Positions 403-15,748 of a DNA stretch of 64,000 bases are shown piece after piece (position 1 is the first letter of the stretch; each line of letters begins with the position of its first letter). The stretch comes from Spirochaetia bacterium (GTDB lineage: Bacteria > Spirochaetota > Spirochaetia > DSM-2461), in contig CAXXIA010000002.1 of the NCBI GenBank assembly GCA_963666985.2, positions 576,001 through 640,000 on the forward strand, in the 5' to 3' direction. Position numbers and translations under genes: made by a program. Under the pieces are notes generated by a model that was given only the letters and a program-made list of their open reading frames with translations, had not been told where the DNA came from and did not search any database.

Positions 403-1257
403 CTACTCCTTTATGCCCGATGCCGCAGCGCCTTTAATATAGTATTTCTGAAGCGGCAATAGAATACACGTGGGAATGAGAATCGCGACTACCGTAGCGG
501 CGAAAATAACATTCCAAAGCACCGTGAACTCCAGGGTAAATTCACTGATGGCCACCTGGATAACCTTCATGCTCCGCCTCGTCGCCGCCAATAGCGGCCA
601 TAAAAAAGCATCCCACTGTTTTACGAAAAGCATCAGGCCGGCGCTGATGATAACCGGTTTGGAGATGGGAACAACGATTTGGAAAAAGGTGCGTGTATGC
701 CCGGCGCCGTCAATCTTGGCCGCCTCCAGCAAACTGTCGGGGACATCCAGGAAGAACTGCCGGTAAAGGAAAACGATCATTCCGTTGGCCACCATGGGAA
801 GAACCAGCGCGGCGTAGGTATCGATCAAGTGCAGCGATTCCGCCGTTTTGTAGAGCGGTACCGCGATCATTTCAAAGGGAATCATAAAGGAGAAGAGATA
901 GATGACAAAAAGAACATTGCGTCCGGGGAAGCGGTATTTCGCGAAGGCGTATCCCGCCATGGCGTTCACGAAAAAGCCGAGTGCCACGGTCGCCGCCGTA
1001 ACAATGAAGGAATTGAGAATCGGGAGCCAGAAACGGTGCTCGCTAAAAAGTGAGCGGTACGCCTCTCCTGTGAAAATTTTCGGTATGAACGTATGAACCG
1101 AAAGAGGCGCGGCATAATGAAAAATCTCCTCGTCGTTCCGAAGCGACGATCCTAAGGCGAAGAGAATCGGAAGAACGGAAAAAACGATGATCGCCAGAAT
1201 CACCAAGACGTATAAAACGTTAAGCGCAGGGGTTAAGCGCGACTTTCGCTCGATCAT
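403..1257 (-). CDS. Carbohydrate ABC transporter permease (MalG-like)
   Basis: About six TM segments; EAA loop 'LLEAAKIDGAG'. Confidence 0.95.
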   Translation of the reverse strand: MIERKSRLTPALNVLYVLVILAIIVFSVLPILFALGSSLRNDEEIFHYAAPLSVHTFIPKIFTGEAYRSLFSEHRFWLPILNSFIVTAATVALGFFVNAMAGYAFAKYRFPGRNVLFVIYLFSFMIPFEMIAVPLYKTAESLHLIDTYAALVLPMVANGMIVFLYRQFFLDVPDSLLEAAKIDGAGHTRTFFQIVVPISKPVIISAGLMLFVKQWDAFLWPLLAATRRSMKVIQVAISEFTLEFTVLWNVIFAATVVAILIPTCILLPLQKYYIKGAAASGIKE

Positions 1258-2189
1258 CGTGCGTCTCCTTTATTCCGTGATTCCTTTGCCGCGGAAGCAC
1301 CGCGTTCCCGCATCACTCGAAACTGAAGGCCGATAACGAGCAGGGAAATGAAGAGCAGAATCGTGATAATCGCGTAGGAACGGCCGTAATTGGAGTATTT
1401 AAACGCCGAACGGTAAGCCTCGAACATCAGCACGTTTGTCGATCCTTGAGGACCGCCTCCGGTCAGGAGGTAAACGGGAACGAACATGAAAAGGTTAATC
1501 ATCGTGTCGGAGATGGTGACGAAAACAAGCGAATTCTTCAGCATCGGAAGGGTGATGAGGAAGAGTTCGGAAAAGAAATTCGTCCCGTCGATTCTGCCGG
1601 CCTCATAAAAAGAGCCGTCGATGCTCTGAAGTCCCGCCAGGAGGAACATCATCCAATAAGCGACGCCCTTCCAGCAGCAAATGAGCATAATAACGTACAT
1701 CGCCTGATTGGAACTCGTCAGAAAGGGCTGTGAGGAAATGCCGAAGACGTTGAGAATCGAGTTGATCACTCCGGAGGAGGGATTGAGCATCAGGTTCCAC
1801 ACCGTCGAAGCGACCACCATGTTGATCGCCACCGGAATATAGACAATCGTCCGTGATACACGAACAAAAAGGTGGTTGCGGTTGAACAGAAGCGCCACAA
1901 AAACAGCCAGGACTATCTGAAGCGGCGTTACGATAAAAGTGAACTTCACCGTCATGAGAATCGAGTTGAGAAAATCGGGATCGCGAAAGAGCCACAGGTA
2001 ATTTTCAAACCCGACGAAGGCATTGACGCCGCCGGCGACACGCCGAAAGAAGCTGCCGACGACCGAGTAGGCGATGGGATATCCCTTAAAAAGGATAATA
2101 AGGATGAAAGACGACGAGAGAAATGCATAAGGGACGAGTTTTTCCCTCAGTCGCCGATAATTAATATTGACGGATTGAATTTGATTCAT
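1254..2189 (-). CDS. Carbohydrate ABC transporter permease (MalF/UgpA-like)
   Basis: 'FVGFENY' and 'YEAGRIDG' motifs. Start moved from 2264 to ATG 2189, which has a GGAGA RBS; the longer start would run through the intercistronic hairpin. Confidence 0.93.
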   Translation of the reverse strand: MNQIQSVNINYRRLREKLVPYAFLSSSFILIILFKGYPIAYSVVGSFFRRVAGGVNAFVGFENYLWLFRDPDFLNSILMTVKFTFIVTPLQIVLAVFVALLFNRNHLFVRVSRTIVYIPVAINMVVASTVWNLMLNPSSGVINSILNVFGISSQPFLTSSNQAMYVIMLICCWKGVAYWMMFLLAGLQSIDGSFYEAGRIDGTNFFSELFLITLPMLKNSLVFVTISDTMINLFMFVPVYLLTGGGPQGSTNVLMFEAYRSAFKYSNYGRSYAIITILLFISLLVIGLQFRVMRERGASAAKESRNKGDAR

Positions 2190-2222
2190 GAAACGGTTTC
2201 TCCGGTACTCCAAATAACGGTC

Positions 2223-2250
2223 CGCCGCCGGAGAGGTCCTCTCGGCGGCG
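2223..2250 (-). other. GC-rich stem-loop just downstream of the SBP gene
   Basis: cgccgccggagag-gtc-ctctcggcggcg: 12-bp stem with one bulge. Confidence 0.7.
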
Positions 2251-2263
2251 TCCTTTCTCTCCA

Positions 2264-3583
2264 TTACCGGTATGGAACCAGTTTTACTTCGATTGAGGAG
2301 ACTGCCGCGTCAAGGGCTTCCTCCACGTCGGCGCCGTTTCGAATATCTTCGATTGTTGCGCCGATAACACTCTCCCACTCACGATAACCAAGCGATTTCG
2401 GTCGCGGAGCGGCACTGTTCTGAGCTTCGTAGGCCGCAAGGCGGAAGATTGAAAGCGGTTCATTCTCATACTGCGGATCGTCGAAGTACTTCTGCAGTTC
2501 CGAAACTCGAGCGGAGAATTCACCGCGGGCATTGCAGAACGCATCATTGCCCTTGCCGAAAGTAAAAAACTTGACGAATTCCGCCGCCGCCGCTTTGTTC
2601 TCCGAGAAATTACTGACTCCGATATGGAAGCTGTCGGTAGGTGTTGCGGGAACGCCGTCGGCAAAAGAAGGGAAAGGCGCAAATCCGTACCGCAGTCCCT
2701 CGGTTGACTCGAACGTACGATAATCGAAGATGTTGGCGCAGATGAAAGCGATTTTACCGGCGGTAAAAAGTCCGATCGTCTCCGCCGGAGCAACTCCCTT
2801 GGGGGCGATTTTGTCAACATTGTGAATGTCCGAATACCACTGCATGGATTTGGTAAACCCCGGGCCGTTGACATAACCGTCCACCGTCAGGCCGTCGGGA
2901 CCAATCCCTTCACCCTTCGCGGAATTCACCAAGGGAAGAATCTGATAGGGGCGGCTGATCTGTTCGAAGGTAAGACCGTAAACGGTCGGATCGCCGGAGG
3001 CGGCCATAATCGCCTCGGACATTTCCACCACTTCATCCCATGCCAGCCTTTTCTCGGGATCGGCGGAAGGATATTCAAGTCCCGCGGCATCGAGGAGGTT
3101 CTTATTGTAGAAAAGAACATGGGAGGAGTTCTTAATAGGCGGCGCGTAGAAGGAATCCCGATAGCTGCCGGAATCGACAAGCGCCGGGGCGAAAACCGCC
3201 TTTTCCTCCTCCGTGAAGTAGGCATCCAGCGGGGCGATAAACCCGCGATAGGCGTAGCCGCTTACCATGGTGGCGTCGGTGAGAACCACATCGAAATTCG
3301 AACTCTGAGAACCGAGTTTTATCTCGATGACATCAAAAAGCTGGGTAAAAGGATACTCTTCCAGTTCAACGTGAATATCGGGGTATTCCGTTTTAAACGC
3401 TTCCACCGCCTGAACGTTGCCGTTATGGTATTCGGCGATGGAGAGAAAGGTAATCGATCCCGCCAATTCTCCGTCCGATGCCGATGCTTCGGCCTCAGCC
3501 TTGTCGTTTCCACAGGCAATCAATGCCGTGGAGAGTATAAAAAGTCCGATTATGGAGATGCTCTTCCATAATTTTTGTTTCAT
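2264..3583 (-). CDS. Sugar-type ABC transporter substrate-binding lipoprotein
   Basis: Start ATG 3583 with AAGGAG RBS; lipobox 'LIAC'; SBP_bac_1 motifs such as 'LFYNKNLLDAAG'. Confidence 0.93.
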   Translation of the reverse strand: MKQKLWKSISIIGLFILSTALIACGNDKAEAEASASDGELAGSITFLSIAEYHNGNVQAVEAFKTEYPDIHVELEEYPFTQLFDVIEIKLGSQSSNFDVVLTDATMVSGYAYRGFIAPLDAYFTEEEKAVFAPALVDSGSYRDSFYAPPIKNSSHVLFYNKNLLDAAGLEYPSADPEKRLAWDEVVEMSEAIMAASGDPTVYGLTFEQISRPYQILPLVNSAKGEGIGPDGLTVDGYVNGPGFTKSMQWYSDIHNVDKIAPKGVAPAETIGLFTAGKIAFICANIFDYRTFESTEGLRYGFAPFPSFADGVPATPTDSFHIGVSNFSENKAAAAEFVKFFTFGKGNDAFCNARGEFSARVSELQKYFDDPQYENEPLSIFRLAAYEAQNSAAPRPKSLGYREWESVIGATIEDIRNGADVEEALDAAVSSIEVKLVPYR

Positions 3584-3800
3584 CGGTTTACTCCTTAATT
3601 TTTCCGCAATCGGTTTATGAATAAGTCCGGGCCGCCTAAGGACAAAGTAATTGTAGTAGTGATTTTTCAAGATCAAAACGTAGCGGATTAAAGATTTGTT
3701 CCCCGATTTAAATGAGTTTGCACTCCGTATATTGACAGGTGTTTTTTTACGGCGCTACGGTCGGCTCGGCCGCAGGACAAATTCGATTGGAGTGAAATGA

Positions 3801-4607
3801 ATGGAAACGACCTATCACACAAAAACGACGAAGAACGATGTCGCGCCCTATGTTCTCCTTCCGGGAGATCCGAAACGCGTGCCCCTCGTGGCCGAACTCT
3901 GGGATGAATCACGACTCATCGCCGACAACCGCGAGCATGTCACCTACACCGGCGTTTACAAAGGCATGCCGATTACCTGTACAAGTACCGGAATGGGGTG
4001 TCCGTCGACAGCGATCGCCGTTGAAGAATTGGCGCGCTGCGGCGGGAAGACCTTTCTGCGCATGGGAACGTGCGCCGCGATCCAGGACTACGTGAAACCC
4101 GGAGACATCGCGATTTTCGATTCGGCATGCCGCTTTGAAGGAACTTCGGGCCGATATGTTCCGCCGGAATATCCGGCGGTGGCGCACCACGAAATTATCG
4201 CCGCGGCGATTGAAACGGCCAAGCGTTTGGAACTGCCGTATCACGTTGGAACAACACGCACCACGGACGGACTTTTTGCAAACCGTCCCGAAAAGGATTC
4301 TTCCTTCGGCGGATACAGGCGCCACGATTGGGATTACTTTCTCAGCGACCTCAAGGCGATGAAAGTTATCGCCGGAGAAATGGAAAGCAGTATCGTCATG
4401 GTCCTTTCTCGTCTCTTCGGTCTGCGCGGCGGCGCCCTATGCGTGTGCGTTACACATCTGCTCAAACAGTATCAGGAAGGCGGCTCTTTCGATTATGACC
4501 GCGATATCTCCTACACGCCGGACAATGTAGGGCGCCTCAACCGCGTTGCCTGTGAGACAATGCATCAAATTTATTTGAACGACCAAAAAAGCGGCGGCAT
4601 CGACTAA
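3801..4607 (+). CDS. Nucleoside phosphorylase (PNP/UDP family, Udp-like; base specificity uncertain)
   Basis: 'LLPGDPKRV', 'NRE', 'STGMGCPS', 'RMGTC' and 'EMES' motifs. Confidence 0.9.
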   Translation: METTYHTKTTKNDVAPYVLLPGDPKRVPLVAELWDESRLIADNREHVTYTGVYKGMPITCTSTGMGCPSTAIAVEELARCGGKTFLRMGTCAAIQDYVKPGDIAIFDSACRFEGTSGRYVPPEYPAVAHHEIIAAAIETAKRLELPYHVGTTRTTDGLFANRPEKDSSFGGYRRHDWDYFLSDLKAMKVIAGEMESSIVMVLSRLFGLRGGALCVCVTHLLKQYQEGGSFDYDRDISYTPDNVGRLNRVACETMHQIYLNDQKSGGID

Positions 4608-7882: not shown

Positions 7883-8356
7883 TTATTCTTTTCGCAGCAA
7901 ATCCATACTCACCTTAATGACACATTTGCGGAACGTAGAGGGCTTCTCCAGCATCACGCCGGGACGATGGGCATCCCAAGGGAAAAAAACGGCGAAAAAG
8001 CCGGGGCGGGCGGTAATAAAATTTTCATCGGGATCAGACTCCAAAAAGTAAACGTCGGAAGCCTCCTTTGCCTCAAGAATACGCTCTTCGCCCGAATAAG
8101 GAGCGATACCGAAACATTCACTGCCGTCCGGCCAATACTGTACGTCGATGTATTTGACATGAACCTCGGGACGAGTCTCTTCAAGCGGGAGAGTGGTAAA
8201 GTCAAACACCTTGGCAAACATTTTCTCTCCGTCAATCGGATAATCTCCGACGGCGACGGACTTAAAATCGGTGTCTTTCAGAAAATGCAGAGCCCGGCAT
8301 ATGGCATCCGGATATGCTGAAAAATCATCATTTATTCTCAAGCTGGAAAAAATCAC
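7883..8356 (-). CDS. YhcH/YjgK/YiaL (DUF386, NanQ-like) protein
   Basis: 'PEVHVKYIDVQY', 'FAVFFPWDAHRPG' and 'RKCVIKV'; GTG start with GGAGG RBS. Confidence 0.93.
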   Translation of the reverse strand: MIFSSLRINDDFSAYPDAICRALHFLKDTDFKSVAVGDYPIDGEKMFAKVFDFTTLPLEETRPEVHVKYIDVQYWPDGSECFGIAPYSGEERILEAKEASDVYFLESDPDENFITARPGFFAVFFPWDAHRPGVMLEKPSTFRKCVIKVSMDLLRKE

Positions 8357-8451
8357 AATCGCTTCCTCCCGGGAATGATTCTATCAGGTATGGGAATAAA
8401 AAAGAAATCACTCCACTCCGTTCAGAGTACGCGTATCTTAACCTGAAAAAG

Positions 8452-8560
8452 AAACTCGGGCCGAATTTTTTTTTATGGCTCGGCACAAATCCGCGCACCA
8501 GGAATCGGCCGTTTAAAAACTCGGGCCGAAATTTTTTTATGCCTCGGCGCAGATCCGCGC
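8452..8560. repeat. Two imperfect ~45-bp direct repeats, 65 bp apart
   Basis: 8452-8496 aaactcgggccgaatttttttttatggctcggcacaaatccgcgc; 8517-8560 aaactcgggccgaaatttttttatgcctcggcgcagatccgcgc. Confidence 0.9.
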
Positions 8561-8678
8561 GGCCGTTCGTCGGATTCTCCGAAACCTTTGGAAAAACATC
8601 CCCCGGCGGCGGGAACTTGTTGAGCTTCACTCTGTAAGATAACATAAACTAATTACTTATTGATTGCGGGACCGAATT

Positions 8679-9743
8679 ATGTCGGAAATGAAAGCGGGAA
8701 TAAAGGAAATCGCCCGAATGGCCGGCGTCTCTACAGCCACAGTCTCCCGCGTTTTAAACGGTAACAAAACCGTAAACTCTGAAATGGCCGAGAAAGTTAT
8801 CGCTGTTGCGGCTTCTTTGGGATATCAGCCTTCTCCGGCCGCCCGCTATATGAGAAGTAAAAAATCCGGCCTTCTCGGCATCGTGGTTCCCGATCTGTCA
8901 AAATCCTATTTCGGAGATATCGTCAACGGAGCCATCAGTAAGGCGCGTGAATATAACCAAATGATGGTTGTAGGGACTGTAGAAGGCAAATCCGGAACGG
9001 AAAAAGAATTCCTAAGAAAGCTCTCGGGATATATGCTGGACGGATTGATTTACTGTCCCGTCTCAACGGATATCCAATCAAAAAAGACCGAAGTCCCTAA
9101 AATCCCGCTCGTTATAGCCGGAAGACGCCGTGTTCTCGACGGAGTTCCGCATGTCAACACCGACGATGAAAATACAGGGTACTTGTCGGCGCGTTATCTG
9201 CTGAACCTGGGAAGACGCAATATCGGATTTCTTGCGGGCTTTTGGGAATCGGCTCCCTTTAAAGATGCGGAAGACCTCCTTTCCTCCGTGAATCTTCCCA
9301 TCAGCGGCGCTTTTTCCGCATTGGATCGAATCCGCGGTTTTCAAAGAGCCCTGCGTGAAGAAGGTCTCGAACTGAAAAAAGAGAAACTGGCCTTCTGCGG
9401 ATTTGATGCGGAAAGCGGATATACGGCCGTCCGTGAGCTCTTCAGCAGACTGAACAAGATTGATGCTCTTATGGTTCCCAACTGCCTTGTCGCCCGCGGT
9501 GTTTTCCGTTTCTTCAACGAACAGGGAATATCCGTTCCGAAAGAAATCTCATTGATATCCCTGGACGATATGCACAACGGCGAACTTCTCGCGGTTCCCG
9601 TAACTTCAATCACGCATGATATGTACAGCCTGGGAATGGAAGCGGTTATTCTGCTGAACCAGGTAATCCAAAACAAAAAGCCGCAGGATAAAATTATCGA
9701 CGTCAAATTAATCATCCGGCAGTCAACATCGAAAGAAATCTGA
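8679..9743 (+). CDS. LacI-family transcriptional regulator
   Basis: HTH 'IKEIARMAGVSTATVSRVLN', hinge 'YQPSPAARYM', periplasmic-binding-fold C-domain. Confidence 0.96.
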   Translation: MSEMKAGIKEIARMAGVSTATVSRVLNGNKTVNSEMAEKVIAVAASLGYQPSPAARYMRSKKSGLLGIVVPDLSKSYFGDIVNGAISKAREYNQMMVVGTVEGKSGTEKEFLRKLSGYMLDGLIYCPVSTDIQSKKTEVPKIPLVIAGRRRVLDGVPHVNTDDENTGYLSARYLLNLGRRNIGFLAGFWESAPFKDAEDLLSSVNLPISGAFSALDRIRGFQRALREEGLELKKEKLAFCGFDAESGYTAVRELFSRLNKIDALMVPNCLVARGVFRFFNEQGISVPKEISLISLDDMHNGELLAVPVTSITHDMYSLGMEAVILLNQVIQNKKPQDKIIDVKLIIRQSTSKEI

Positions 9744-9764
9744 TTTTCACGTTCCGGGGCTTCG

Positions 9765-9782
9765 CGAGTAAACGTTTTCTCG
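9765..9782. promoter_or_regulatory. Auxiliary LacI-type operator
   Basis: cgagtaaacgttttctcg near-palindrome with the same AAACGTTT core as the site at 9864. Confidence 0.7.
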
Positions 9783-9831
9783 TGACTTCAACGACAAAAG
9801 CACCTCTCAGGCGGTTAAAAAGAATTATTCA

Positions 9832-9860
9832 TTGACATCCCATACCCGGGAGTATAGAGT
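9832..9860 (+). promoter_or_regulatory. Sigma70-type promoter of the tct-aroA operon
   Basis: TTGACA (9832-9837), 17-bp spacer, TAGAGT (9855-9860). Confidence 0.75.
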
Positions 9861-9863
9861 CAG

Positions 9864-9875
9864 GTAAACGTTTAC
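9864..9875. promoter_or_regulatory. LacI-type operator over the predicted +1
   Basis: Perfect palindrome GTAAACGTTTAC with central CG, directly after the -10 box. Confidence 0.8.
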
Positions 9876-9885
9876 GGAGGCCGCT

Positions 9886-11424
9886 TTGTTCTTTTCCGCC
9901 TTAAAAGACGCTTTGGACATTAATGTTATTCTCCTGACGGCCCTGGGGAGTTTAAGCGGTGTCGTTATCGGAGCGCTCCCGGGACTTTCGGTAACAATGG
10001 CCACGGCGCTTCTCGTATCGCTCACCTTCAGCTGGTCCATGGAATACGCTTTGGCCATGATTATCGGAGTTTACTGCGGGGGCGTTTTCGGAGGTTCCAT
10101 ATCGGCGGTTTTGCTCAATATCCCCGGAGCACCGGCGGCCATTTGTACCGGCTTCGACGGGTATCCGCTGGCGAAACAAGGCAAAGCGGCCATGGCTTTG
10201 GGTTTGGCCAGAATCGGTTCTTTTATCGGCGGAATCATCGGAGTTCTTTTCCTGGCTCTTTTCGCCCCGCCGATATCGACGATCGCTTTAAGTTTCGGCC
10301 CGTTTGAATACCTCGGCCTTATCGCCCTTGGACTGATTACCATAGGGAATCTATCGGAAGGCTCGTTTATAAAAGCGATTCTGGCCGGACTCTTCGGTCT
10401 GCTTCTTTCAACGGTCGGAATGGATCCGGTCTATGGAATACCCAGATTCACGTTCGGAAGCATGCAGCTTCTTTCCGGAATCGGCCTTATCCCAAGCCTC
10501 ATCGGTTTTTTCGGTCTCTCGGAAGTTATTGTCCAAATGAGAACCCCTTCCAATAAACATCAAATCATCAAGCAAATGGGAAAGGTAATTCCTAAGTTAT
10601 CCACCTTCATGAAAATGATTCCGGTCATTTTAAGATCTTCGGTTATCGGCGCCTGGATTGGAGCCCTTCCCGGAGTGGGAGGAACCATCGCTTCATTCCT
10701 GGCATACGACAATGCCAAGAAAACCGTGAAGAATCCCACTCAGCCGTTCGGCGAAGGAGCTTATGAGGGAGTTGTTGCTCCGGAAGTCGCCAATAACGCC
10801 ATGGTCGGCGGAGCGATGATTCCACTCCTTACCTTGGGGATTCCCGGTGACGCGGTTACAGCCATCATGATGGGCGCTTTTATCGTTCATGGACTTCAGC
10901 CCGGTCCCATGATGATGATCAACAGCGCCGATTTATTCTGGTACATCATCATTTTGTTCATTTTGGCGAATATCCTTTTTCTCTTCATTGGATTACTGGT
11001 TACAAAGTACTTTCCAAGAGTTCTTTCGGTAAAACCGGAAACACTGATGCCCATCGTATCGGTTCTCTGCTTCGTCGGAGCCTACGCCATCAGAAATTCG
11101 GTAATGGACATCATCATCATGGTCTGCGCCGGCTTGATAGGATACCTCTTCAAACGAATTAAATTTCCAATTGGACCTGTTGTTATCGGCCTTGTTCTTG
11201 GGGGAATGGCCGACGGTGAACTGAGACGCGTTTCCATGATTTCCGAAGGAGATGTTTTCGGCATGCTTCTGAAAAGGCCGATCGCGATCGTTATTTTCCT
11301 CTTCGCCCTTCTTCAGATTCTCGATCAGATAGGCCGCTTCAAACAACGGCGAAAAGAAATCGGTTCAAAACTGTTCGGTTTAATTCGTGCCTGCTTTATA
11401 CGGAACCACAATAAGACGAAATGA
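9886..11424 (+). CDS. tctA: Tripartite tricarboxylate transporter, large permease
   Basis: Duplicated 'GALPG' motifs, 'NIPG', 'PEVANNA' and 'LTLGIPGD'; TTG start with GGAGG RBS. Confidence 0.95.
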   Translation: MFFSALKDALDINVILLTALGSLSGVVIGALPGLSVTMATALLVSLTFSWSMEYALAMIIGVYCGGVFGGSISAVLLNIPGAPAAICTGFDGYPLAKQGKAAMALGLARIGSFIGGIIGVLFLALFAPPISTIALSFGPFEYLGLIALGLITIGNLSEGSFIKAILAGLFGLLLSTVGMDPVYGIPRFTFGSMQLLSGIGLIPSLIGFFGLSEVIVQMRTPSNKHQIIKQMGKVIPKLSTFMKMIPVILRSSVIGAWIGALPGVGGTIASFLAYDNAKKTVKNPTQPFGEGAYEGVVAPEVANNAMVGGAMIPLLTLGIPGDAVTAIMMGAFIVHGLQPGPMMMINSADLFWYIIILFILANILFLFIGLLVTKYFPRVLSVKPETLMPIVSVLCFVGAYAIRNSVMDIIIMVCAGLIGYLFKRIKFPIGPVVIGLVLGGMADGELRRVSMISEGDVFGMLLKRPIAIVIFLFALLQILDQIGRFKQRRKEIGSKLFGLIRACFIRNHNKTK

Positions 11425-11472
11425 GTTTCGGAGGTTAAAAATCCAAACTCATAAAAATAACAGGAGGTTTAT

Positions 11473-12501
11473 ATGAATACGGAAAAACGATTGACGGTTA
11501 TCCTTGCGCTGCTGCTGATAATCGGCTGCGGAACGCTTTTTGCCGAAGGACAGCAGGAAGTCGATGTTGAGAACTATCCGGAAAGGGAAATTGAAGGAGT
11601 AATCACATGGGGTGCCGGAGGCTTAACCGATAACATCGCCAGAAATTTCCTGCCTCTCATGGAAGAACAGCTGGGGGGCGCCAGTATTGTTCCTCAGAAT
11701 AAAACCGGTGCCAGCGGTGCCGTGGGCAGTCAGTATGTCATGGGAAAACCTGCGGACGGATATACAATCCTGATAACCACTACCGAGTCGTGCGGAGTGT
11801 GGAATGTCATGGGAACTTCCGACATGGACGTCAACGACTTTGAACCCATTATAATCCTTACGAGCCTGAATCCCACTTGTTACGTTCGTGCCGATGCGCC
11901 CTGGAACAGCGTTCAGGAACTTATTGCCGACGCTCAATCCAGACCGGGGAAAATTATCGCCGGTTATGCCGCACCGGGTTCCTTGGGGCATGTATCGGGA
12001 CTGCTCTTCTCCGAATACAGCGGCTCCGAATTCAACATGGTCCCCTTCGGCGGCGGCGGGAAAGTCATGGCCGCTCTTCTGGGAGGACACGTTGATGTTG
12101 CGTTCAATCCTCTGGTTTCAATTATGGAGAATTACAAAGCCGATAAGATTAAACTCCTTGCGACGTTTACCAACGAAGAAATCGTCGACGGCGTGCCCGC
12201 TCTTGGAGCGGAAGTAGCCTCGTTCAAACCGGTTATGCCCTATGGAATCATGGTTATGATATTGGTTCACAAGGATACTCCTCCGGCAATCGTTGAAAAA
12301 TTAACGGATGCGGCCGTTAAGGCCTCCTCGGATGCCGAATGGAAAAAATTCGCCGATAAATATTATCTTCAGATTGTCGGAGACACCGGAGATGATTTCC
12401 GCCGAACCGTGGATGCCTGGAAACCTCTGACGACTTGGCTTCTTTACGACGCCGGCGTGGCAACCAAGTCGCCCGAAGAATTCGGAATCGGCAGAAAATA
12501 G
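11473..12501 (+). CDS. tctC: Tripartite tricarboxylate transporter substrate-binding protein (Bug/TctC)
   Basis: 'YPERE...WGAGGLTD', 'NKTGASG', 'PADGYT' and 'VPFGGGG..AALLGGHVD'. Confidence 0.93.
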   Translation: MNTEKRLTVILALLLIIGCGTLFAEGQQEVDVENYPEREIEGVITWGAGGLTDNIARNFLPLMEEQLGGASIVPQNKTGASGAVGSQYVMGKPADGYTILITTTESCGVWNVMGTSDMDVNDFEPIIILTSLNPTCYVRADAPWNSVQELIADAQSRPGKIIAGYAAPGSLGHVSGLLFSEYSGSEFNMVPFGGGGKVMAALLGGHVDVAFNPLVSIMENYKADKIKLLATFTNEEIVDGVPALGAEVASFKPVMPYGIMVMILVHKDTPPAIVEKLTDAAVKASSDAEWKKFADKYYLQIVGDTGDDFRRTVDAWKPLTTWLLYDAGVATKSPEEFGIGRK

Positions 12502-12513
12502 GTAGAATGAAGC

Positions 12514-12984
12514 ATGAGTAAATTGCCGGGGAAGAGTTCTTTAGTGAACAGCGGGGAGTTCTGGTTCACAATCTGTCTGATTCTTATCGGGATTGCCGGT
12601 CTGGTCTACAGTCTTACGCTCCCTCTAATGGGTCCTGTCGCTTTATGCCCGGGACTTTTCCCCGGTGTTGTAACCTCACTGATGCTTACTTTGGGATTGG
12701 TGAGGTTCTTCCAAATGCTGCGGACGAAAGAAGAACAAAGTAAAAACGGAGAGAAAGAAGAAAATACCGAGCAGCGAAGCATTCTGATCATCATCGCTTT
12801 TTTCCTGATGTATCTCCTGCTTCTGGTATACACGCATTTTCTCATTTCCACCTCGGTCTTTCTTTTTCTTTCCATGTTTTACCTTTACAGGAAAATGAAC
12901 TGGAAGATACCTGTGGTTTCCGTAATAACAACTCTTAGCGTGTTTTACTTATTCAGGTATCTGCTGAACGTAAGGTTACCCTAG
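12514..12984 (+). CDS. tctB: Tripartite tricarboxylate transporter, small permease
   Basis: 4-5 TM helices, 'PGLFP', C-terminal 'F..LLNVRLP'. Confidence 0.9.
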   Translation: MSKLPGKSSLVNSGEFWFTICLILIGIAGLVYSLTLPLMGPVALCPGLFPGVVTSLMLTLGLVRFFQMLRTKEEQSKNGEKEENTEQRSILIIIAFFLMYLLLLVYTHFLISTSVFLFLSMFYLYRKMNWKIPVVSVITTLSVFYLFRYLLNVRLP

Positions 12985-13019
12985 AGAAACGAAATTAATT
13001 TCGACAATCGGAGAAAAAA

Positions 13020-14321
13020 ATGCTGGCCAGAATCCAAAAATCGGGTCTGACGGGTGAGGTATGGATACCCGGATCAAAATCTCACATGATACGGTCTTTA
13101 TACTTCGGCGCCCTTGGCAAAGGGCAATCCATTATTCGCAATCCCGTCAGATCAAAAGACTCTTTGTCGGCGGCCCGAATTATAAAGGCCATGGGCATTC
13201 CGCTGGATATGAAAAGGGATGACTTTTGGACCGTGCAGGGAGGAGAACTGAAAGTTCCCGAAGATATTATTGATGTGGGCAATTCGGGAACATCCATGTA
13301 TTCGGGATCCGCTTTAGCCGCCTCGCTGGACGGATATACCGTCTTTACCGGAGATGAACAAATTCGCAAACGGCCGATGCAGCCGGTATTGAACGCACTC
13401 ATGCTTCTGGGAGCGGAAGCCTGGTCAATCAGAGGAAACGGTTCCGCCCCTTTCATCGTACGGGGACCTCTGAAAGGGGGAAAATGCTATGTGGACGGCA
13501 TCGTCTCACAATACGTCAGCTCAGCCGTTCTGGCCGCAACCCTTTCTCGGAACGATACGGAAATCATCGTCGATAAAGCGAATGAAATCCCTTATATAGA
13601 AATGACTCTGCAATGGATGAAGGCCCTGGGGGTTTCCGTCGATGCTTCCGATGATTTCAATCATTATTATGTAAAAGCCGGTCAGTCATACGCCCCTTTC
13701 GACAGATACGTTCCCGCCGACTTTTCTTCCGCGTCATTCATGCTCATCGGCGGAGCCGTTACGGACTCTTCGGTCACTCTTTTGGGACTCGATACCCGGG
13801 ATGTTCAGGGCGATAAAATCCTTATCGACATTCTCAAAGACATGGGCGCCGACATTCGGGTGAAAAACCATGGAGCCGACGGAATCCTTATCAACGGCGG
13901 GAAAGCGTTAAAGGGACAAGTTATCGACTGCTCCCCTACCCCCGATTCAATACCGATCTTGGCCGTTCTCGGCTGTTTCGCCGAAGGGGAAACACGTTTG
14001 TTCAATATTGAAAGCTCACGAATCAAAGAAACCGACAGACCCCTTTTAATGGCGAAAGAGCTCTCCAAAATGGGTGCGGATATCGAGCTTACCGATAAAG
14101 AACTGATTATTCGCAAAAGCCTTTTAACCGGATGTGAAGTTAAAAGCTACGGCGATCACAGGATTGCGATGGCTCTCTGCATCGCCGGCCTTATCGCTCG
14201 CGGAGAAACCGTTGTCGATAAAGTGGAATCCGCCTCCATCTCTTTTCCCGGATTTGATACCTCTCTGACAAACCTCGGGGCACACGCGGAATACCTGGAA
14301 GAAGAGGTTGAGAACGCATGA
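13020..14321 (+). CDS. aroA: EPSP synthase (AroA)-family enolpyruvyl transferase with a divergent S3P pocket
   Basis: 'PGSKS', 'GNSGT', 'RKRPM', 'SQY', 'PADFSSA', 'RIKETDR' and 'DHRIAM'. Confidence 0.9.
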   Translation: MLARIQKSGLTGEVWIPGSKSHMIRSLYFGALGKGQSIIRNPVRSKDSLSAARIIKAMGIPLDMKRDDFWTVQGGELKVPEDIIDVGNSGTSMYSGSALAASLDGYTVFTGDEQIRKRPMQPVLNALMLLGAEAWSIRGNGSAPFIVRGPLKGGKCYVDGIVSQYVSSAVLAATLSRNDTEIIVDKANEIPYIEMTLQWMKALGVSVDASDDFNHYYVKAGQSYAPFDRYVPADFSSASFMLIGGAVTDSSVTLLGLDTRDVQGDKILIDILKDMGADIRVKNHGADGILINGGKALKGQVIDCSPTPDSIPILAVLGCFAEGETRLFNIESSRIKETDRPLLMAKELSKMGADIELTDKELIIRKSLLTGCEVKSYGDHRIAMALCIAGLIARGETVVDKVESASISFPGFDTSLTNLGAHAEYLEEEVENA

Positions 14322-15748
14322 GTGACGGGGGAAAGAACGGAAAAAACGGAACGGCCTCTCTGCTGATTCCGAAACGCAGAACTCTGATGTTTCGATCGGC
14401 CCGGAGAATCGAAGGCGGACGTCAGCCGGGCATCAAGGCCGGACCGTTCATTATCCGTCTTCCCCTGATACATCATCAGCTGGAAATCTCGGAACTCTTT
14501 CAAGGAATCATTATGACGGCCACGGGCCTGGGACTTGTGGCCCTTCTGGAGGATTTCTTTGGAATTCCTTATGAAATCGCGCTGACAATCATCATTGTTC
14601 AGCAGCTCGGATATTATCTTCATCAATTTCTGGGAGATACGACAATCTCAGGATGGCTGACTCCGGCCGTTCCGCTGATAATGACCTTTATTTCACGATA
14701 TCCGGCCGGGCAGGAAAGACTCAGGGCTTATATCGCCCTTCAAATCATCGTCGGGATTATTTTTCTCTTTTTTGGCATATCGGGTTTGGCATCCAAACTG
14801 ATGAGAATGGTTCCCGAATCCCTGAAAGCGGGACTCATTATCGGCGCGGGACTGAGCGTGCTCATCGGCGAATATGGAATTACGCCCTCCGGACTGCTCT
14901 ACAAAGATTACTTTTTCGTCCTGATACTCGGAATGCCCATTGTCCTGTTCCTCATTTATTCAGACTGGGTAAAAACACAGATTAAACGAAAGCCCAAAGG
15001 TGTTCTGGGCCGATTATCCCGTTATGGAATATTCCCCAGTCTTATCCTTGTCATCATCATCGCCGCACTAACAGGAGAAGCCGAATTGACATCCGTCCAA
15101 TTCGGTTTCTTTACTCCGAAATTCGGCCGGATGGTTAAGGACTGGTCGGTTTTTGCCGTCGGTTTTCCAACGGCCGAAATGTTTCTTTCCTCCGTTCCCA
15201 TCGCCGTAGCCGCTTATATCATGGCTTTTGGAGAAACCGTTCTGGCGGCGGAAACTGTGGAGGAAGCGAAAACCTACAGACCCGATGAAGAGATCGGATT
15301 CGATACGGGCCGTCTGAATCTGATTACCGGAATCCGAAACATTATTCATGCCCTGATAGCCCCCAACGGGGGATTGGCCGGCCCCAACTGGGCGGCGATG
15401 ACCATGGTTATCGCCAGAAGATACGAACAGGGAAAAGATGCGATGTACTCCCTTATCGGAGGATCGGCGTCCTTCAATATCATGCGGGTTCTCATGATGA
15501 CGTTCCTTCCTCTGATCACCATCATTCTTCCGTTCAGGGTTCCCATTTTGTGTGTTCTTATGGTTCTGCAAGGTTTTGCCGGTTTTTCCCTGGGACTAAA
15601 AATCGCCGACAACCGCATGAAACGAACCATCGCCGTTCTCACCGGAGTTGTGCTGTCGTTCTACGGAGCCGCTTGGGCCATAGCGGCAGGCATCCTGCTC
15701 AGTCTTGTAATGGAGGACCGTTCTTCAAAAGTGAAATCCCCGGAATAG
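14318..15748 (+). CDS. Multi-pass permease resembling the xanthine/uracil/vitamin C (NCS2-like) group
   Basis: About 12 TM helices; 'GPFIIRLPLIH', 'GWLTPAVP' and 'VPESLKAGLIIGAG'; ATGA overlap with aroA. Confidence 0.7.
   Translation: MSDGGKNGKNGTASLLIPKRRTLMFRSARRIEGGRQPGIKAGPFIIRLPLIHHQLEISELFQGIIMTATGLGLVALLEDFFGIPYEIALTIIIVQQLGYYLHQFLGDTTISGWLTPAVPLIMTFISRYPAGQERLRAYIALQIIVGIIFLFFGISGLASKLMRMVPESLKAGLIIGAGLSVLIGEYGITPSGLLYKDYFFVLILGMPIVLFLIYSDWVKTQIKRKPKGVLGRLSRYGIFPSLILVIIIAALTGEAELTSVQFGFFTPKFGRMVKDWSVFAVGFPTAEMFLSSVPIAVAAYIMAFGETVLAAETVEEAKTYRPDEEIGFDTGRLNLITGIRNIIHALIAPNGGLAGPNWAAMTMVIARRYEQGKDAMYSLIGGSASFNIMRVLMMTFLPLITIILPFRVPILCVLMVLQGFAGFSLGLKIADNRMKRTIAVLTGVVLSFYGAAWAIAAGILLSLVMEDRSSKVKSPE

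Follow-up and report, generated by a model that had tools for sequence, protein, structure and literature searches.

A 64,000-nucleotide stretch of a Spirochaetia bacterium genome (positions 576,001 to 640,000 of contig CAXXIA010000002.1; hereafter the window) contains an operon in which aroA, the gene for 5-enolpyruvylshikimate 3-phosphate (EPSP) synthase, is joined to the genes of a tripartite tricarboxylate transporter (TTT) and preceded by a gene for a LacI-family repressor. LacI, a carboxylate importer, and AroA are the conserved core of a cassette that recurs in other spirochaetes. Judging from sequence, we consider it on balance probable that this cassette serves to salvage shikimate, or an intermediate close to it in the pathway, for chorismate synthesis.

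According to this scheme, TctC would bind a hydroaromatic acid, TctAB would import it, and a separately encoded AroK would phosphorylate the imported compound. Shikimate or shikimate 3-phosphate (S3P) would release LacI, leading to more uptake and more AroA, and AroA would convert S3P and phosphoenolpyruvate (PEP) to EPSP, which would be passed to AroC. The permease encoded at the end of the operon would be an accessory carboxylate carrier, for which the scheme specifies no direction. Since the putative inducer is also made by the cell, the cassette enzyme could replace a housekeeping aroA while being under LacI control. Two single cases hint at the cargo: locus L081 has both dehydroquinases in the cassette cluster, and in genome G556 an orthologous tctC and the trp operon are adjacent and divergently oriented. 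Salvage of a shikimate-like compound was among the options raised in a preliminary description of this DNA, and it fits best among them. Pyruvate-ketal sugars were also considered as cargo and dropped, because their reversal to PEP is uphill and the arginine contacting the shikimate carboxylate is kept in AroA.

The genome that holds the window (G000) is a 4.86-Mb assembly, 93% complete, in three unclosed contigs. The features of the cassette and of its flank are as follows.

8679..9743, plus strand: lacI, a LacI-family repressor of a distinct subfamily with an insertion in the effector domain (PF00356/PF00532)
9768..9779: distal operator, within a longer imperfect palindrome (about 9762-9785)
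9832..9860, plus strand: sigma-70-type promoter, TTGACA-17-TAGAGT (-35 at 9832, -10 ending at 9860)
9864..9875: proximal operator, just 3' of the -10 and 96 bp from the distal operator
9886..11424, plus strand: tctA, large membrane subunit of the TTT (PF01970, E 6e-150)
11473..12501, plus strand: tctC, periplasmic carboxylate-binding protein (PF03401, E 3e-30; PDB relatives)
12514..12984, plus strand: tctB, small membrane subunit (PF07331)
13020..14321, plus strand: aroA, EPSP synthase of a cassette-specific clade (TIGR01356)
14318..15748, plus strand: permease, BenE/NCS2/DUF3360-like, coupled to aroA (sub-threshold matches)
7883-8356, minus strand: yhcH-family gene (PF04074)

The order lacI, promoter with two palindromic operators, and tctA-tctC-tctB-aroA-permease, with a 4-bp ATGA overlap between aroA and the permease gene, had been read from the sequence before; the open reading frames at the positions then given, the protein families, and the conserved operators all agree with it. 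LacI, TctA, TctC, TctB, and AroA score above their family cut-offs, and the three TTT subunits, each above its Pfam cut-off, occur together in one operon. The ATG at 8679 is a likelier start of lacI than the TTG at 8664. One piece of short-read contigs from a public run, possibly of the source sample, matched window positions 8300-13752 without differences.

The operator 12-mer pattern occurs at three sites in G000, two of them at the cassette, against about one expected for the genome from base composition, and the operator pair 5' of tctA is kept in loci L026, L071/L072, L074, L076, L179, L206, and L207. The helix-turn-helix and effector domains of LacI, together with palindromic operators that overlap the promoter and are kept in orthologous loci, suggest a local repressor predicted to bind at these sites, in line with the two-operator LacI control proposed earlier. 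The -35 hexamer is conserved in relatives; a promoter scan gave 4 sites vs 7.5 expected by chance, so that the promoter call is weak by itself. Operator spacings lie near whole helical turns (p 0.013-0.02 for 10 distinct values), a weak result obtained post hoc among kin. A genome-wide pattern scan of G000 gave no other exact operator 5' of a chorismate-pathway gene. The third exact operator-like site (G000:C2:712252) lies 5' of a sugar ABC operon and probably belongs to another LacI.

To place the cassette AroA among its relatives, 7998 candidates were scored in a protein search. There were 40 relatives at 56-90% identity, followed by a fall to 49% or less, and those with database names are Spirochaetia. 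Trees were built with FastTree and, for 58 chosen AroA sequences, with IQ-TREE. The results showed that the tct clade has an IQ-TREE support of 99.7, that it joins a sister clade at 100, and that a third small group joins at 87. All three cassette AroA groups lie apart from the housekeeping spirochaete clade, which holds the aroA of the genus of G000. The expectation of a separate AroA clade with conserved synteny was thus borne out: the full gene order recurs in the spirochaete genomes G041/G525, G453, and G498, and is split across contigs in G037 and G646. Thirteen of the 16 metagenome loci fall in the tct clade, eight beside tct genes, a permease gene, or both (L071 and L072 having the same sequence) and five (L007, L073, L075/L078, L077, and L079) with an aroA that stands without transporter, lacI, or operator; aroA is also kept in this state in genome G027. 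A phylum-wide sample of 400 genomes contained no further tct-clade AroA, and matches in 117 plasmid records were all below 60% identity (best 35%).

In the sister clade, aroA lies beside a TAXI-type tripartite ATP-independent periplasmic (TRAP) transporter, with a LacI of the same subfamily and the same operator. The sister-clade LacIs are 36-39% identical to the window LacI, and other LacIs of G000 reach 28%. We compared a profile of 10 cassette LacIs with 401 genomes of the class, scoring at most five candidates per genome, and matched 19 genomes, seven of which had contributed to the query. A binding-protein-dependent carboxylate importer and aroA were present on the LacI contig in 16 of the 19 (five with the TTT layout of the window, nine with TAXI-TRAP, and two with a second TTT layout). 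In the remaining three, a contig end interrupts the cassette (G030 and G646) or tctB is followed by the permease gene with no aroA in between (G445).

It could be argued that aroA was captured once beside an unrelated transporter and merely hitch-hikes with it, without any functional tie. Either part can indeed be lost, and the three cassette AroA groups come from one ancestor (the node with support 87). However, the link between aroA and LacI survived a change of both transporter family and gene order, and in the TAXI layout the operators flank the aroA/TAXI intergenic region. Moreover, among the 12 genomes found by LacI alone, aroA was adjacent on the same contig in nine (separated by a contig end in two, absent in one). 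Hitch-hiking is therefore highly improbable.

We then examined whether the cassette enzyme is an additional or the only EPSP synthase of its host. G000 gave two PF00275 matches, the cassette AroA and a MurA located elsewhere. It also has aroB, an aroD-aroE-sized fusion, aroK, aroC, and 3-deoxy-D-arabino-heptulosonate 7-phosphate synthase; these all lie beyond the window, which was not annotated for aro genes as a whole and in which the earlier reading had recognised no other shikimate-pathway gene. In six genomes of the same genus, aroA is the immediate 5' neighbour of a DUF6675 gene; G006 has it flanked by a large gene and DUF6675. In G000 the corresponding slot is assembled on a single contig, both flanks included, and is empty of aroA, and tblastn at E<=1 found no aroA remnant elsewhere in G000. 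In another family, the cassette aroA is the only copy found in G564 (99% complete) and G721 (96%), and the slot that reads binding protein-aroA-ltaE in G737 is assembled in both without aroA. As these assemblies indicate, the cassette AroA has replaced the resident aroA in at least two lineages. Because it is the sole copy, with the ancestral slot empty, the rest of the pathway present, and the catalytic residues kept, the cassette enzyme very probably still makes EPSP.

Among 18 cassette genomes, several of them incomplete (71-100%), 10 have a cassette and a housekeeping aroA, seven a cassette-clade aroA only, and one a housekeeping aroA only. In G445 and G464, the transporter is kept without a cassette aroA, and a housekeeping copy is present. 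The term paralog, used in the preliminary description, suits the 10 genomes with a second copy but not G000, whose single aroA is one of the findings which that description had said would speak against its proposal.

The proposal was that of a catabolic paralog which adds an enolpyruvyl group to an unrelated imported carboxylate or removes one from it; the permease would then export a by-product. The inducible transport context and the second aroA in 10 of the 18 genomes would suit such a role, as would the gene found 3' of aroA, which is the permease gene in the TTT layout and, in its place, a gene for a LysE-type exporter in the TAXI cassettes L209, L212, L213, and L067. The loss of Q171 (E. 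coli numbering) in a basal subclade also points this way. Against it stand the sole AroA and empty ancestral slot of G000, G564, and G721, and the invariance of the ring contacts S23, R27, Y200, D313, and K340. Furthermore, the cassettes examined contain neither a kinase or dehydrogenase gene nor any other catabolic gene. The yhcH-family gene is present on the minus strand as described, but it is not beside any other cassette locus examined, so that it lends no support to a sugar-acid catabolic operon. An unrelated carboxylate as substrate is thus very improbable, and phosphorolysis to PEP survives as an option for a substrate with a shikimate ring and not for others.

The family assignment of the enzyme is consistent with salvage into chorismate synthesis. 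The window AroA scores 371.3 bits with TIGR01356 (cut-off 287.25) and 85.7 with the MurA model TIGR01072 (cut-off 392.7). Its predicted structure (mean predicted local distance difference test score 94.9) has the two-domain enolpyruvyl transferase fold, with best template modelling (TM) scores of 0.91-0.92 in Foldseek, and, apart from one designed protein, the matches listed are all EPSP synthases or AROM proteins. The TM score against S3P-bound EPSP synthases is 0.91, at approximately 30% identity to solved enzymes. Third codon positions of aroA diverge far more than second positions from those of L026 (0.59 vs 0.11).

The active site was compared by alignment to E. coli AroA (PDB 1g6s), the numbering of which is used here, in 140 AroA sequences from Spirochaetia and other anaerobes, comprising 56 of the cassette superclade (40 of them in the tct clade) and 84 sister housekeeping sequences; a few duplicates and kin are included. 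The roles given to catalytic, PEP, ring, and phosphate-contact residues are those which we take them to have. All 40 tct-clade sequences share K22, S23, R27, N94, G96, T97, R124, S170, Y200, D313, K340, E341, R344, H385, and R386. The catalytic and PEP-binding residues K22, R124, D313, E341, R344, H385, and R386 correspond to K20, R118, D309, E337, R340, H380, and R381 of the window AroA, in which the shikimate ring contacts S23, R27, Q171, Y200, and K340 are all present. Of the S3P phosphate contacts S169, S170, S197, and N336, which are V162, S163, E189, and S332 in the window AroA, S170 alone is kept. PMC12738574 lists residues 169, 170, 197, and 336 as active-site pocket residues. R100Y, S197E, and K411I were tried as cassette markers and rejected, as Y100, E197, and I411 are common to cassette AroA and housekeeping relatives. 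At the position of Ser197 in the E. coli enzyme, adjacent to the S3P phosphate, every member of a broad AroA group has Glu.

Several of these observations weigh against salvage of shikimate through S3P. S or T at position 169 is found in 0 of 56 cassette-superclade sequences vs 77 of 84 housekeeping ones, and N, Q, or H at position 336 in 0 of 56 vs 84 of 84; Q171 is replaced by A or T in seven of the 40 tct-clade sequences. Further points of this kind come from the genomes. Shikimate would need AroK first, yet aroK is never in the cassette; it is directly 5' of aroC in 17 of the 18 cassette genomes. The gene aroB is present in 16 of the 18, and hosts that mostly have the upper pathway would gain from salvage merely a saving of cost. 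The presence of aroC in all 18 does not exceed the background of 178 of 201. Six sister-clade sequences (P0043, P0073, P0080, P0083, L082, and L083) have no known context or nearby transporter, and, the assemblies being incomplete (including that of G000), a relocated housekeeping aroA could lie in a gap.

Loss of the contacts at 169 and 336 in all cassette-clade enzymes raises the possibility, a rather unlikely one in our estimate, of direct action on an unphosphorylated substrate. AroA might be tuned for such an import, either converting 5-enolpyruvylshikimate and phosphate to shikimate and PEP or using shikimate without a kinase; we hold this to be conceivable but doubtful. It would account for a cassette that combines AroA, as its only enzyme, with any of three importers but never with a kinase, and a dicarboxylate suits the binding proteins of the TTT and TAXI families. 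E. coli EPSP synthase uses shikimate slowly, and the equilibrium of its reverse reaction is only moderately unfavourable. On the other hand, Glu197, which accompanies the two losses, is present in 84 of 84 housekeeping relatives and Val169 in seven, so that an enzyme with an ordinary role could carry these changes as well; neither S170 nor K340 has been lost; the transporter persists without the cassette aroA in G445 and G464; and a search of the open literature gave no report of enolpyruvylshikimate as common in nature. A still more tentative, and unlikely, version is that this EPSP synthase lineage works as a one-enzyme salvage system, running the reverse reaction with phosphate on imported 5-enolpyruvylshikimate or a similar unphosphorylated enol ether of the shikimate ring, with PEP and shikimate as products, while retaining enough of the normal reaction to displace the housekeeping gene. 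If true, the EPSP synthase reaction would run in reverse as part of normal physiology, and a cross-fed shikimate-pathway metabolite in anoxic communities would be implied.

Another alternative is self-protection: the cargo would be a nutrient resembling PEP and inhibitory to ordinary EPSP synthase, and a tolerant copy would be supplied by the cassette. This would explain the co-induction of AroA alone, and the window AroA has Ser at position 101. However, none of the 84 housekeeping relatives has Pro at position 101 either, G96 and T97 are conserved, the cassettes examined contain no enzyme that would use a PEP-like nutrient, and G445 and G464 combine the transporter with a housekeeping enzyme only. 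Self-protection is thus very improbable.

The transporter proteins gave little indication of the cargo. The closest solved binding proteins are distant from TctC (E about 1e-29) with no close liganded relative among the PDB matches, structural relatives of TctC and LacI offered no ligand clue, and a LacI library search added no context. The permease has sub-threshold matches only (BenE/MFS_MOT1), with BenE/NCS2/DUF3360-like neighbours in the ESM Atlas, and among cassette layouts it is confined to this TTT layout. Its relatives in 12 other genomes are mostly 3' of a coenzyme A-transferase-like gene, as judged by eye. G000 encodes a second permease of the same family (G000:C2:1002760-1004163; 36% identical), adjoining a small cytidylate-kinase-like gene (by eye).

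The cassette is built from known parts. It resembles EPSP synthase systems (TIGR01356; E. coli AroA) in passing the equivalog cut-off, in fold, and in catalytic and PEP-binding residues, but its enzyme forms its own clade with V/I/N169, E197, S336, and I/V411 and its gene lies behind a LacI-type operator pair, in the company of importer genes rather than serC/cmk. It shares all three subunits with TctABC/Bug systems, whereas sister cassettes have TAXI-TRAP instead; no shikimate-type TTT ligand was found in the open literature searched. MurA belongs to the same superfamily, as do NikO-type enolpyruvyl transferases, showing that the fold can take other acceptors; the cassette lies in no biosynthetic cluster. 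Shikimate/quinate clusters (ShiA, the E. coli ydi cluster, and the Listeria qui operons) link hydroaromatic acid transport to shikimate-pathway enzymes. They rely on major facilitator superfamily carriers and dehydrogenase/dehydratase steps, under regulators of the LysR or other types, and we know of none with AroA and LacI. Full-text searches of open PMC and bioRxiv (subscription journals lying outside them) gave no report of an AroA combined with LacI and either a TTT or a TRAP importer, and the combination is apparently undescribed in the literature searched.

AroA is normally a fixed housekeeping step, and here it belongs to a cassette that has its own repressor and in which one importer can stand in for another. 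The cassette would point to a shikimate-type compound exchanged in anoxic communities, and its TctC, TAXI, and LacI proteins are candidate first binders or sensors of such a compound. The cassette AroAs may also serve as a natural series of EPSP synthases with a reduced phosphate pocket for studies of substrate choice.

Some loci related to the cassette have unusual arrangements. L081 (71-10044) reads aroD(type I)-tctCBA-aroQ(type II)-tctACB-aroA-cyclase without LacI, and its AroA has Ala at Q171. In L080 (2103-6910), from an unrelated-looking genome, the order is aroA-TAXI-small membrane gene-TRAP, again without LacI. The TAXI-linked aroA of L184 (7577-8778; genome G002) is broken by a frameshift, possibly from decay or an assembly error, and a housekeeping aroA is also present. 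The stand-alone AroA of L240 (G275:C3) belongs to the third cassette group, and neither of the two aroA found in G275 is of the ordinary housekeeping clade. A chorismate mutase gene beside the cassette, on the opposite strand, was not counted as evidence, because G645 has it with housekeeping aroA elsewhere; it is a neighbour of the insertion site. In the window itself, a unit of roughly 64 bp is imperfectly duplicated at 8452-8560, between yhcH and lacI, and at 403-4607 a sugar ABC transporter, not conserved with the cassette, is divergent from a uridine-phosphorylase-like gene.

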